Part shown: positions 3,998 through 19,569 of the stretch, in pieces | Layout: the number at the start of each line of letters is the position of its first letter | How positions within the stretch are numbered: position 1 is the stretch's first letter | Source: Alphaproteobacteria bacterium | Lineage (GTDB): Bacteria; Pseudomonadota; Alphaproteobacteria; UBA1280; UBA12223 | Assembly (NCBI GenBank): GCA_003450915.1 | Contig: DMEM01000017.1 | Span: 1-26,129, forward strand | DNA length: 26,129 nt | Direction of reading: 5' to 3' | Program-made: the position numbers and the translations under genes | Notes under the pieces: generated by a model | What the model was told of the DNA's origin: nothing | What the model saw: the letters and a program-made list of their open reading frames with translations, nothing else | Databases searched by the model: none

Positions 3998-4312
3998 ATG
4001 AAAAAAGATTATAAATGTTCAGTAGACGCAACAATTTCTGTAATAGGAGGAAGATGGAAGCCAATAATTCTATTTCATTTAATGATCCTAGAGGTATTAC
4101 GCTTCAATGAAATGCAACGCTCTATTGAAGGCATTACACAACGCATGCTAACCAACCAGCTAAGAGAGCTTGAAAAAGATGGTGTAATTGAACGTAAAGT
4201 CTATGCACAAGTTCCACCAAAAGTAGAATATAGATTAACAGACTATGGGAAAACACTAGAGCCAATTCTTTTAGCTATGCGAGAATGGGGAACTGAACAT
4301 ATGCAACGATAA
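3998..4312 (+). CDS. HxlR/DUF24-family winged-helix transcriptional regulator
   Basis: CSVDATISVIGGRWKPIIL, RFNEMQRSI, RMLTNQLRELE, PPKVEYRLT; divergent from the nitroreductase. Confidence 0.93.
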   Translation: MKKDYKCSVDATISVIGGRWKPIILFHLMILEVLRFNEMQRSIEGITQRMLTNQLRELEKDGVIERKVYAQVPPKVEYRLTDYGKTLEPILLAMREWGTEHMQR

Positions 4313-4368
4313 AATTAACTTTTAAACCCATATTATTATAAAATAAGAAAAAAAATATCAGTAAAAGC

Positions 4369-4397
4369 TTTACTTTTTAGTTCTTTTACCCTATATT
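4369..4397 (+). promoter_or_regulatory. Probable sigma70 promoter of the helicase gene, implying a leader of about 215 nt
   Basis: TTTACT-17 nt-TATATT; I found no better promoter closer to the ATG. Confidence 0.55.
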
Positions 4398-4620
4398 ACC
4401 CATACAAATTAACAATATTCGTGTAAACTAACATAATATTGTAGCTAACAAAGTATGTAAAAAAATAATAAATAGCTAGGACTACCCTAGTATTTTTTTA
4501 TTTTAAGAAACTCTTAAAAGATATTTTAAATAATCCTTTATTTTTGCAATAAAGAGCCTGAAACAAAGTGGCTATTAAGAAGTTCTGCATAAATTTAAAT
4601 TAATAAAGGAAATATCTATT

Positions 4621-5949
4621 ATGATAAGCAAATTTACTGAGCTAGAATTACCTCAAGCTCTACAAGATTCATTACAAAGACTTGAGTTTTTTGACCCAAC
4701 TCCAATTCAAGCACAATCAATCCCTCATGCATTAACAGGCGAAGATGTTATTGCTTCAGCTCAAACAGGTACAGGTAAGACATTAGCTTTTGTATTACCA
4801 ATGTTAGCAAAAATGATGACTACTACAGAGCAAAAAGCTATTATTTTAATGCCTACTCGTGAATTAGCAATTCAGGTTGCTACAGTAGTTAACCAACTTA
4901 TTGGTAAAAACATTCAGCTTAGCTCTGCTACATTAATTGGTGGAGACTCAATGTCTAAGCAATTAAAAGCACTAAAACGCTCTCCTAGAATCATTGTTGG
5001 TACACCAGGACGTATTAACGACCACCTAGAAAGAAGAACTCTTAAATTAGGTAACGCTACATTTTTAGTACTTGATGAAACAGATAGAATGTTAGATATG
5101 GGATTTGGTATTCAAATTGATACTATTATCGAAAGAATGGACCCATACAGACAAACTCTAATGTTTTCTGCAACAATGCCTAAAGGTATTGTAAAACTAG
5201 CTGATAAATACCTAAAAACGCCTCAAAGAATTGAAATTGAAACTGACAAGTCAAACTTAGACAGAATTTCTCAAGATTTTATGCACGTTAGTGAAAATGA
5301 CAAACTACAAGTTCTTCTAAACGAACTTGAAGCAAGAGAAGGTTCTGTTGTTCTATTTGTTAAAACAAAAAGAAAAGTTGAAAAAATTGCTAAAGAACTA
5401 GCAAGAGAAAACCACAAAGTTAGCTATATTCACGGTGATTTAAAACAAGGTAAAAGAGAAAGCGTTATTAAACGCTTCAGAGACTCTAAGTTTAGAGTTA
5501 TGGTAGCAACTGATGTTGCAGCTCGTGGTTTAGATGTTCCCCATGTTGAGCACGTTATTAACTTCGATTTACCACAAGCAGCTGAAGATTACATCCACAG
5601 AATTGGTAGAACTGGTCGTGCTGGTGCAACTGGTAGCTCATTAAGCTTAGTATCTGGAGAAGACAGAAGATATTATAACGAAATTCAAGAATTAATTGAC
5701 CCTGACTTTGTTATGCCAAAAAGAAAGCCTAACCCAAGAAAAAGAAGCGGTGGCGGAAATGGTGGCGGCAGAGGCGGTAAACGCTTCGGTGGCAATAATG
5801 AAGGTGGCAGAGGCGGCAAACGTTTTGGTGGCAACAGAGATGGCGGCGGCAGAGGTGGCAGAAGTGACAGAGATGGTGGCAAAGATGGCGGTAAACGCTT
5901 CGGTGGCAACAAGTCAAAAAGAAAACCTGCTCCTAGAGGTTCAAAATAA
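4621..5949 (+). CDS. DExD-box ATP-dependent RNA helicase (RhlE/CshA-like) with Gly/Arg-rich tail
   Basis: Q motif PTPIQ, AQTGTGKT, PTRELA, TPGR, DETD (motif II), SAT, ARGLD, HRIGRTGR. Confidence 0.96.
   Translation: MISKFTELELPQALQDSLQRLEFFDPTPIQAQSIPHALTGEDVIASAQTGTGKTLAFVLPMLAKMMTTTEQKAIILMPTRELAIQVATVVNQLIGKNIQLSSATLIGGDSMSKQLKALKRSPRIIVGTPGRINDHLERRTLKLGNATFLVLDETDRMLDMGFGIQIDTIIERMDPYRQTLMFSATMPKGIVKLADKYLKTPQRIEIETDKSNLDRISQDFMHVSENDKLQVLLNELEAREGSVVLFVKTKRKVEKIAKELARENHKVSYIHGDLKQGKRESVIKRFRDSKFRVMVATDVAARGLDVPHVEHVINFDLPQAAEDYIHRIGRTGRAGATGSSLSLVSGEDRRYYNEIQELIDPDFVMPKRKPNPRKRSGGGNGGGRGGKRFGGNNEGGRGGKRFGGNRDGGGRGGRSDRDGGKDGGKRFGGNKSKRKPAPRGSK
5773..5909 (+). repeat. Three coding repeats GGKRFGGN in the helicase tail
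   Basis: GGCGGTAAACGCTTCGGTGGCAA at 5773-5795 and 5887-5909 (identical); synonymous variant at 5812-5834. Confidence 0.9.
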
Positions 5950-18216: not shown

Positions 18217-18819
18217 TTAATATGATAAAGTTGGCATTGCATAAAGCCTAGCATAAGTATAGGCACTTGAAGTAGCATCATACCTAAACAATCCCTTATT
18301 CTTTCCATCTGAGCCATCAAAGTACTCATCTAGACTTTCAGCCATTGAAGTAATGGCACTACTTGTTGTACCCATTCTTAAAGCAATCCAGGCATAACAT
18401 TTTTTACTACCATCACATAAATTTGCTAAATTAGGATTTCCTGAGACATCCCAATCCTCTTTATTAGCCTTTGAAATATAAAAATAATCATATTGAGCAT
18501 GATCTATACCACTTGCATAATCTGCTGATTGAGGATATGAAATATAAGGACCATTCCAACCTGTAACACTATCATCTTGAATTAATGGTAAAGTTGGATT
18601 ATCGGCAGTATAAAGACCACTATTAATATCTTTACCAGTATCTAATACATAAGCCTCATAAGCCTTTACAACTTCTTTAAACTCATTAGCCAAAGCAACC
18701 ACCCTAGCCTGTTTAATTGCACTGTATAATGCCGCGCCTGATATCACCGATAGCGCACCAAAGATTGTCAGAGCAATCCTTGCATCCAAGCCAAACATAG
18801 CACCTTTTTTGCTTAACAT
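18217..18819 (-). CDS. Type IV pilin / GspG-like pseudopilin with variant N-terminus; start revised to MLSKKGA
   Basis: Short basic leader, hydrophobic helix MFGLDARIALTIFGALSVISGAALYSAI, YEAYVLDTG, GWNGPY (GspG-like), C-x5-CYAW. Confidence 0.75.
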   Translation of the reverse strand: MLSKKGAMFGLDARIALTIFGALSVISGAALYSAIKQARVVALANEFKEVVKAYEAYVLDTGKDINSGLYTADNPTLPLIQDDSVTGWNGPYISYPQSADYASGIDHAQYDYFYISKANKEDWDVSGNPNLANLCDGSKKCYAWIALRMGTTSSAITSMAESLDEYFDGSDGKNKGLFRYDATSSAYTYARLYAMPTLSY

Positions 18820-18837
18820 CTCCACATCCTCCATAAC

Positions 18838-19569
18838 TTAATCATTTGGATTTTTAACTGGAGCTATTTTTAAAAATATCGTACCAGTTCCTGACCATCT
18901 AAAATTACCGACATCATCGCCATCTGAATTATCAACTTTTTGATCTATTACTTCCATTAACGCTGTGTCATTTGCAAAGTCAAAACCATTCATAACCGAC
19001 CAGGCATAACACTGTTTTCCTGATGAACAAGCACCTTCTGTATACCATGAATCACCTAAACCCCATGTCTCATCATTTATATCAAGCACATGAACTTCAC
19101 TATAAACAGGATGTTTTAATATATTCACAGATGCTTTTTTATAAGGCAAATAAGGACCTTTCCAACCCGCAAGAGAAGATGAATCTTCTATTAAATCAAC
19201 TGTAATTCTCATATGCAAAGACATACCTGAAGGACCTGTTTTTCTTAAGTCAGACCCAGTATCTAGCAAATGATTTTCCCAAGCTTTACCAACCTCTTGT
19301 AACTCAACCAGTAGAGCAGTTGCTCTGGCTTCTTTAATTGCTGAATATAATGCTGCTCCTGAAATAACTGATAATGCCCCAAAAATTGCTAAAGCAATCC
19401 TAGCATCAAGCCCGAACATGGCACCTTTGGCAGTAAGAACTCTAGTCGCGTGATGACCTGCGACTAACCTAAAGGTAAGTCTACGGAGGCTCATTAAAAA
19501 TATGCTCCCAGCATATTTTCTTAACACTCGACCTTCAAGACCAAACATCGCTCCTTTTTTATTTATCAT
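18838..19569 (-). CDS. Second pilin/GspG-like paralogue, with duplicated KGAMFGL and a 43-codon in-frame extension
   Basis: AAAGGA RBS before ATG 19569; same helix, HLLDTG, GWKGPY, C-x5-CYAW. Confidence 0.75.
   Translation of the reverse strand: MINKKGAMFGLEGRVLRKYAGSIFLMSLRRLTFRLVAGHHATRVLTAKGAMFGLDARIALAIFGALSVISGAALYSAIKEARATALLVELQEVGKAWENHLLDTGSDLRKTGPSGMSLHMRITVDLIEDSSSLAGWKGPYLPYKKASVNILKHPVYSEVHVLDINDETWGLGDSWYTEGACSSGKQCYAWSVMNGFDFANDTALMEVIDQKVDNSDGDDVGNFRWSGTGTIFLKIAPVKNPND
19406..19557 (-). repeat. 23-bp imperfect direct repeats (19406-19428, 19535-19557) flanking a 106-bp palindromic insert
   Basis: 19/23 identical with all 4 mismatches at third codon positions; insert hand-counted at 47/106 G+C, with three hairpins. 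Confidence 0.85.

Follow-up and report, generated by a model that had tools for sequence, protein, structure and literature searches.

Why should a pilin-like gene carry the motif at the end of its leader twice, with a translated stretch of hairpins between the two copies? We asked this of a gene on contig DMEM01000017.1 (assembly GCA_003450915.1), all 26,129 nt of which were analyzed and are referred to here as the window. The window is contig C23 of a metagenome-assembled genome (MAG; denoted G000; 1.34 Mb, 32% GC, 217 contigs, 89.7% complete) of an Alphaproteobacteria bacterium. The gene proved to be one of ~70 pilin-like paralogues in this genome, and ~23 of these carry an insert at the same site. 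A comparison of the copies suggested that the insert is kept as a folded nucleic acid inside a coding sequence and that it has moved between genes by recombination at the motif.

The 243-aa product of the gene reads MINK-KGAMFGL-E, 36 aa, KGAMFGL-DARIAL. The original prediction, made from the window's letters, described two motif copies with a 129-bp period and four synonymous differences, a spacer of ~44% GC, and three hairpins, all of which we confirmed. The two 23-nt copies (DR1 upstream, DR2 downstream; period 129 nt) differ at 4/23 positions, every one synonymous, and the GC content of the 106-nt spacer is 44.3%, compared with 33.3% for the window. The chance of an in-frame, stop-free insert had been called low, at 1 in 15–20; low it is, but rarer than claimed, at ~1.7% for random inserts of 100–159 nt with the window's own base composition. 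The gene is made up of the following parts.

18838..19569, minus strand: long-form pilin/pseudopilin-like gene (243 aa), with leader, insert, second motif, conserved head, and variable body
19558-19569, minus strand: start codon and MINK, directly before DR1
19535..19557, minus strand: upstream motif copy DR1 (23 nt), encoding KGAMFGL-E
19429..19534, minus strand: type-A interior (module 1, module 2, and linker; 106 nt), translated through
19406..19428, minus strand: downstream motif copy DR2 (23 nt), abutting the alpha-1 helix; probable prepilin-peptidase site
19330..19425, minus strand: conserved 32-codon head GAMFGLDARIALAIFGALSVISGAALYSAI, common to the ~70 paralogues

A six-frame scan of the MAG returned 68 loci with the head KGAMFGLDARIALAIFGALSVISGAALYSAI, together with a divergent member and fragments at contig ends. 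The paralogues combine an almost invariant 32-residue head with bodies that are ~30% identical, and they occupy ~3%–4% of the 1.34-Mb genome (for example, window positions 18217-19569, C107:5212-8052, and C34:306-2062). Twenty of the inserts are of type A, two are of type D, which has a different 3′ half, and one is of type E. The type-A interiors were found with a profile of the interior, and every copy lies at the same site of the family. A covariance model of the 49-nt core found no interior copy outside the family in this genome; there are two partial, non-coding fragments of module 2 on contig C20. Such recurrence, in which structured interiors of the same or another kind sit at one and the same site, is what the original prediction had named as support for a targeted element.

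Inserts were also found in relatives. The only other species of the genus within the genome collection (MarineProteo1_Bin2; denoted G001) has 67 family genes, four of them with a type-C insert; this species encodes the Leu of the motif as TTA, and a double-motif pattern search adapted to it gave 12 true matches and two chance ones. Four other genomes of the order have four to six family genes each, in which protein and pattern searches found no insert, and the 49-nt core model run over 150 other genomes of the class found nothing convincing outside the order. Metagenomes added a type B and two tandem forms, one an A+D array in which the motif occurs three times and the other an A+A array. Family members, P0005 among them, are also carried by a closed JGI contig of 1.35 Mb. 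Units are 114, 120, 129, or 180 nt long, each a multiple of three, and the inserts are in frame and stop-free. We found no paper in the literature describing such a hairpin insert in a leader.

Several leaders depart from the standard layout. One type-A unit holds a further in-frame insert of 51 nt (L029:3080-3135), a small CCC..GGG hairpin between 11-nt direct repeats TCGCTTTGCTC. Another has been reduced to its linker and is still in frame (L027:5788-5865; leader KKGA-IANQKLTSK-GAMFGLD); this remnant arose by deletion between GC(A/G)AAT microhomologies. A leader of G001 (L068:~1480-1530) has a tandem duplication with no interior, MLKKGAMF-MLKKGAMFGLD, and the motif region therefore duplicates by slippage. 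Runs of N and contig ends fall inside leader repeats in the MAG (G000:C31:13833-13891, C43:~160-360, C131, and the ends of C87 and C217); because these repeats fragment the assembly, our copy numbers are lower bounds.

We then considered what is being conserved in the insert. The diversity at codon positions 1/2/3 was as follows.

DR1: 0.043/0.042/0.24
DR2: 0.05/0.013/0.26
Head: 0.12/0.05/0.40
Interior: 0.188/0.185/0.198

Both motif copies show the third-position bias typical of a protein. The diversity of the interior is flat over the codon positions, so it is read through but not selected as a peptide. At four-fold-degenerate third codon positions, heterozygosity was 0.10 in the interior versus 0.33–0.39 in the flanks. 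The interior can form the following structures.

19496..19520, minus strand: hairpin 1, with an A-tract, a 6-bp variable stem, a GGG loop, a T-tract, and the tail TTTTTA(A/G)(T/C)GAG; the conserved core of types A–D
19462..19481, minus strand: middle hairpin of type A, GACTTACC / GGTTAGTC
19443..19466, minus strand: 7-bp hairpin, overlapping the middle hairpin and not kept in QAS variants
19524..19548, minus strand: possible hairpin 0, a G-U-rich pairing of ATGTTYGG (DR1) with YCGRRYGT (insert), on the sense strand only
19429..19446, minus strand: hypervariable linker, ending in native-leader-like K/Q-L/V-T-A/S-K

Hairpin 1 gave the clearest comparative signal. Its perfect 10-bp stem (19497-19519) was confirmed in the window, and it closes the 5′ module common to types A–D (DR1, a short segment, hairpin 1). 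Across 28 distinct copies the stem is 97.4% paired, and at five of its pairs both partners have changed (35 cells). This was not reached in any of 500 shuffles, and slid controls were 42%–55% paired. Further stem variants were found in metagenomes. Wobble pairs favor the sense strand (~29 G-U vs. 8 A-C). The possible hairpin 0 is paired in 94% of cells with one-sided changes only, which is weak evidence, and we treat both it and the 3′ helices as unproven, their pairing being kept only via one-sided transitions opposite G or U. The linker has a diversity of ~0.40 at each of the three codon positions, and its end resembles short-form leaders (e.g., MKLTNK). As sense RNA the whole 166-nt region folds no better than shuffles (z = −0.96); the signal is therefore one of comparative covariation, not of single-sequence energy. 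A scan of the region against Rfam gave no family match and only sub-threshold noise. To judge from these sequence comparisons, the constraint on the interior is that of a folded nucleic acid, not of a peptide, and it acts chiefly on a stem-loop that is shaped like a terminator and has the loop GGG. The structure is conserved via compensatory changes, which supports the motif-specific nucleic-acid element that had been predicted and refutes a one-off duplication.

The shape of hairpin 1 is otherwise mostly intergenic. Of 77 perfect A3-stem6-loop-stem6-T4 hairpins in the genome, 61 lie outside long open reading frames (ORFs) and 15 inside, and 14 of those 15 are hairpin 1. The window copy was not flagged by a scan for a terminator-type consensus. 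The stem of the type-A middle hairpin is that of a bona fide terminator just 3′ of a family gene (G000:C20:3159), so the insert looks assembled from terminator-type modules. The two partial copies of type-A module 2 lie on the same contig (G000:C20:4041-4141), ~1 kb downstream from a family gene and just before a terminator.

Inserts and gene bodies have separate histories. On the tree of gene bodies the long forms are scattered, with 14 changes for 16 rows compared with a shuffled mean of 14.3, and a single clade of long forms was rejected on this count. Insert distance and body distance are uncorrelated (rho −0.06); the closest pair of inserts, only 3.7% apart, belongs to adjacent genes of contig C107 whose bodies are 29% identical. 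Orthologues exist in both states, some carrying the insert and some lacking it, a finding that bears on the excisable 129-bp switch listed in the original prediction. In one lineage every motif copy reads KAAMFGL, the two of its long gene among them, an instance of concerted evolution. We also considered the insert as a marker of the first gene of an operon and rejected this on the counts of array position (10 first and seven internal for long forms; 31 first and 11 internal for short forms).

Synteny placed the junction in the window more precisely. The body of the window gene has an orthologue, P0033, that is a short form and 87% identical. The order at its locus (L112) is rplS, gene X (short), gene Y (short; P0033), CofD, and DnaG. 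The promoter, start, and DR1 of the window gene align with the corresponding parts of X; DR2 and the motif of Y agree at 23/23 positions. With DR1 the motif of X and DR2 that of Y, there was no target-site duplication, and the four synonymous differences exist because the motifs of two neighboring genes differ. The original prediction had argued against a fresh duplication of the target, and we reject it as well on a repeat test: pairs within a gene differ at 2.41 positions and pairs between genes at 2.38 (p = 0.60). The gene downstream from the long form is the following.

18217..18834, minus strand: short-form paralogue (205 aa) with a single motif copy; its orthologues elsewhere have a type-B insert, a type-C insert, or none

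In a third genome, this locus holds a long gene of type B with the body of this second gene, and the three genomes carry three different arrays at the syntenic locus. An exchange of bodies was seen in a strain (L097:4001-4720) that is 99% identical to contig C49 of the MAG over 4.3 kb, including the whole long leader; at gene nt 314 it switches to an unrelated body and downstream region, and the breakpoint lies ~70 nt (~23 codons) past the end of the conserved head. On the alignments at hand, recombination at the motif best explains the spread of the insert.

Is the host protein a pilin? The AlphaFold2 model (mean pLDDT 81.8) has an alpha-1 helix at residues 51-104 (54 residues) followed by a beta domain, and residues 1-49, comprising leader and insert, are of low confidence. 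The top six structures retrieved with VIA-align were all type IV pilins or pseudopilins (PilA1, CofA, PilS, TcpA, PulG, and EpsG; Z 5.1–7.4), and residue 1 of mature CofA, TcpA, and PulG aligned with the second motif, at model residues 46-51. Foldseek found nothing significant in the PDB, and neither window protein had a match in Pfam or NCBIfam; weak Pfam matches to T2SSG were seen in 10/46 relatives. The motif here, KG-AMFGLD, does not fit the canonical class III signal (G/F-x-x-x-E, cut between G and F) or the N_methyl motif. The MAG encodes a Peptidase_A24 on contig C89 (55.9 bits) and three T2SSE ATPase genes. Given the pilin-like model, the T2SSG matches, and the A24 and T2SSE genes, the term pilin processing motif is reasonable, though the motif is non-canonical, and the model suggests that cleavage probably occurs at the copy adjoining alpha-1.

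How would such an insert arise and persist? At roughly even confidence, we favor a hairpin cassette that is specific to this family, sits in frame in the pilin-like leader, and spreads by recombination at the motif. The cassette would be the 129-nt unit, consisting of the 106-nt interior and one copy of the leader/cleavage motif. Lying upstream of the cleavage motif, it would probably be removed with the leader by the A24 prepilin peptidase, and the insert would be tolerated because it is probably discarded in this way. Selection on its peptide would then be limited to staying in frame and stop-free. The cassette would be gained, lost, tandem-duplicated, and swapped among the ~70 paralogues through recombination within the conserved motif and the 96-nt head (gene conversion or unequal crossover), and this recombination would also shuffle whole gene bodies between arrays. 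At the window junction, the cassette would thus connect what was once the upstream gene X (promoter, start, and motif) with what was once the downstream gene Y (motif, head, and body). The hairpin may be an attenuator or a tolerated passenger: In the mRNA, it could be a weak attenuator or pause site that is sensitive to translation; in the DNA, it could stimulate slippage and recombination. This account builds on the recurrence at one site, the structural covariation, the lack of peptide-type selection, the decoupling from the body phylogeny, and the synteny junctions.

Related modules occur outside pilin genes in two relatives. In G001 (C60; L139:1393-1598), a type-A-like interior lies antisense to the tmRNA gene, between 46-nt direct repeats that consist of the tmRNA 3′ end and terminator (spacing 160 nt). 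In G005 (C5; L118:1438-1639), the 49-nt core of hairpin 1 is flanked by perfect direct repeats of a tRNA-Leu 3′ end (21 nt; spacing 181 nt), with a separate terminator after each repeat. The G000 MAG itself has, on a contig of 3.2 kb (C59; L141:1270-1500), a tyrosine integrase of 468 aa with two copies of a tRNA 3′-end fragment upstream, each after a terminator; this arrangement is likely an island junction. Its tyrosine recombinases comprise XerC/D-like enzymes, this integrase, and one pseudogene. No recombinase adjoins any insert copy, and a search of this 89.7%-complete genome for the RAYT/Y1 (HUH) transposase family PF01797 gave no match; the linked HUH/RAYT enzyme or recombinase that the original prediction had suggested looking for was accordingly not found.

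A different hairpin accounts for type E. On contig C129 of the MAG (4248-4623; L115), inverted copies of a 27-nt hairpin stand on either side of a GIY-YIG gene (97 aa); by eye, this hairpin resembles the Ssn-related SRM/NTS repeats (GTCAT start, stem-loop). There are 23 dispersed copies of this hairpin in the genome, and their stems covary (CCTGAA/TTCAGG vs. CCCGGA/TCCGGG). The type-E leader insert (G000:C127:609-687) is a doublet of such an SRM-like hairpin.

Several of these results weigh against a family-specific cassette that recombination spreads passively. The presence of the same module outside pilin genes in G001 and G005 is a hallmark of site-specific integration, or of its relics. 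Keeping a stem by compensation needs either selection or quasi-palindrome correction, and passive gene conversion supplies neither. DR1 appears to be protein-constrained, which is not obviously needed in a discarded leader. The homology upstream of the insert, ~25–40 nt, is short for RecA-type exchange. Finally, hairpin 1 has a mean free energy of −8.8 kcal/mol, versus −15.9 kcal/mol for the genome's other terminator-like hairpins.

The first of these points leads to an alternative that we consider unlikely but worth weighing, a non-autonomous, site-specific mini-element moved in trans and bringing a replacement copy of its target, as tRNA-targeting islands do. It could be integrative, resembling a cis-mobilizable element (CIME), or resemble a miniature inverted-repeat transposable element (MITE). 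CIMEs are att-flanked remnants: A short interior lies between direct repeats of the target, and the targeted gene is made whole again. The likeness lies in target repeats that flank a module (23 nt here, 46 nt at the tmRNA of G001, and 21 nt at the tRNA-Leu of G005), so that the module core is found between target repeats in three contexts. The lineage-specific types (A in G000, C in G001), the low silent-site diversity of the interior, and the tyrosine integrase beside tRNA-end fragments in G000 also fit such an element, and type E indicates that truly mobile hairpins (SRM doublets from an Ssn-like GIY-YIG unit) do land at this spot. Yet both repeats in the window carry the synonymous variants of two host genes, leaving no element-derived half, and the two repeats of one gene resemble each other no more than randomly paired repeats do. 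No copy lies beyond the family in G000, no RAYT was found there, and no copy has an integrase or other enzyme linked to it. The examples at tRNA and tmRNA genes may themselves be decayed relics of larger islands that merely share the terminator module. The original prediction had listed first an element that targets the pilin motif and carries its own copy; this is unsupported for the window copy, where DR1 and DR2 are host-gene motifs, and only the tmRNA and tRNA copies keep it under consideration.

Selection for function could instead have come first. A host-selected, cis-regulatory RNA, to which we would give somewhat less credence still, would be an in-ORF attenuator or translation brake giving conditional or stochastic expression of a subset of paralogues, with spread being secondary; it would consist of hairpin 1, possibly with hairpin 0 and a 3′ helix enclosing the second motif. 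Such an RNA would account for covariation with a G-U bias toward the sense strand, for an A-tract/stem/T-tract shape that is otherwise intergenic in the genome, and for the position of hairpin 1, 45–70 nt after the start codon. There is a precedent in the pil1 leader of S. gallolyticus, a translated leader running through ribosome-sensitive terminator hairpins that makes pilus expression heterogeneous (PMC3894217). Against it, the region has no Rfam match, array-first genes are not preferred, the stem is weaker than the genome's typical terminator-like hairpins, the tmRNA and tRNA copies occur in either orientation, and orthologues do well without the insert. A related idea in the original prediction, an RNA structure choosing between two starts, fails on a reading of the sequence. 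The only Shine–Dalgarno-like element (GGAG/GGTG) lies 2 nt before the ATG of the downstream motif, leaving no usable ribosome-binding spacing, and we rejected a second start there by inspection.

More doubtful is a dedicated enzymatic system that exchanges cassettes across the 70-gene repertoire by means of the motif and hairpin unit. The motif would be the crossover site, the hairpin, folded as a single strand, would be the substrate (an “empty cassette,” attC-like or CTX/Xer-like), and enzymes would exchange spacers as well as bodies. The copies at the tmRNA and tRNA genes would come from off-target or ancestral integration by the same machinery. By eye, GTTAAGA does not fit the attC core (GTTRRRY / RYYYAAC), no IntI-specific search having been run.

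A functional pro-peptide, either cut at both motifs to release a basic peptide of 43 aa or extended as a cytoplasmic domain, seems very improbable. The insert peptide is consistently basic and both motif copies show protein-type conservation, but the equal diversity at all codon positions leaves no peptide signature in the interior and argues against the released peptide envisaged by the original prediction. The peptide also changes wholesale with the compensatory stem changes and between types A–E, the upstream motif is decayed in several copies, and the structural model has low confidence for the region.

Among Logan contigs from the probable source run, breaks fall at 19429 and 19519, the two edges of the interior, so that no independent contig spans the interior of the window copy; a search of an RNA run gave no close match. 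An assembly artefact or one-off duplication in this contig, which these breaks and the N-runs and contig ends at such repeats elsewhere in the MAG would suit, is scarcely credible all the same given 20 type-A copies in the genome, long forms in many independent assemblies (JGI, ENA, and Tara), one long gene 99% identical over its whole leader in another sample, and an other-sample contig covering 19230-19462 with one mismatch that joins the body of the window gene to 33 nt of interior.

We return to the family-specific cassette and compare it with known systems. Neisseria pilE/pilS combines concerted evolution and cassette recombination, with a constant N-terminal segment and variable bodies. 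The present family likewise has a constant head, variable bodies, and recombination anchored in the conserved part; unlike in Neisseria, each copy is a full-length gene that has a start of its own, and the exchanged unit can be a 106-nt hairpin spacer. The window differs from a CIME in that its repeats are host-derived, from two genes, and in having no adjacent integrase that we could find.

In-frame hairpin repeats are best known from Rickettsia palindromic elements (RPEs) and other intragenic MITE-like repeats (for review, see PMC10969869). As in RPEs, repeated hairpin-forming units of 100–150 nt lie in frame within coding genes and are translated through (PMC10969869). RPEs enter many unrelated genes, whereas here there is one site in one family, plus single non-coding copies in two relatives; RPEs are described as encoding a conserved peptide, whereas here there is no peptide-type selection, and a duplicated 23-nt coding motif flanks the unit. 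Repetitive extragenic palindromic sequences (REP/REPIN) differ in that G000 has no RAYT match and no dispersed extragenic copies beyond the two C20 fragments. Ssn (GIY-YIG) nucleases are associated with SRM/NTS hairpin repeats (Chenal et al. 2025, PMC11893778); the 97-aa GIY-YIG gene with its inverted SRM-like hairpins is similar, as is the type-E doublet, but the type-A interior is unlike this hairpin, departs by eye from the SRM consensus, and lacks dispersed copies. SPRITE of S. pneumoniae is also a repeat unit made of hairpins shaped like rho-independent terminators (PMC10969869). In contrast to pil1 and SPRITE, the hairpin here is inside the pilin ORF itself, in approximately one-third of 70 paralogues, and its stem is weak and termination is a prediction. 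The closest known kinds are thus RPE-type in-frame repeats and terminator-like repeats, from which the cassette departs in its target range and in peptide conservation.

Here, part of a translated ORF evolves purely as folded nucleic acid, and it does so at one defined position in a family of surface proteins that has expanded enormously; the pilin leader, which we assume to be cleaved off, would be a safe harbor for hairpin DNA. In practice, gene callers and assemblers mis-handle such loci: Contigs break, and the leaders resemble frame errors. The family is a repertoire of pilins with constant heads and variable bodies in the MarineProteo1 lineage, a deep relative of the Alphaproteobacteria known only from MAGs. 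The arrays differ between strains exactly at the conserved motif, which indicates a system of surface variation. If the hairpin is indeed an in-ORF attenuator or a recombination substrate, it would represent a new way to control or diversify a pilin repertoire.

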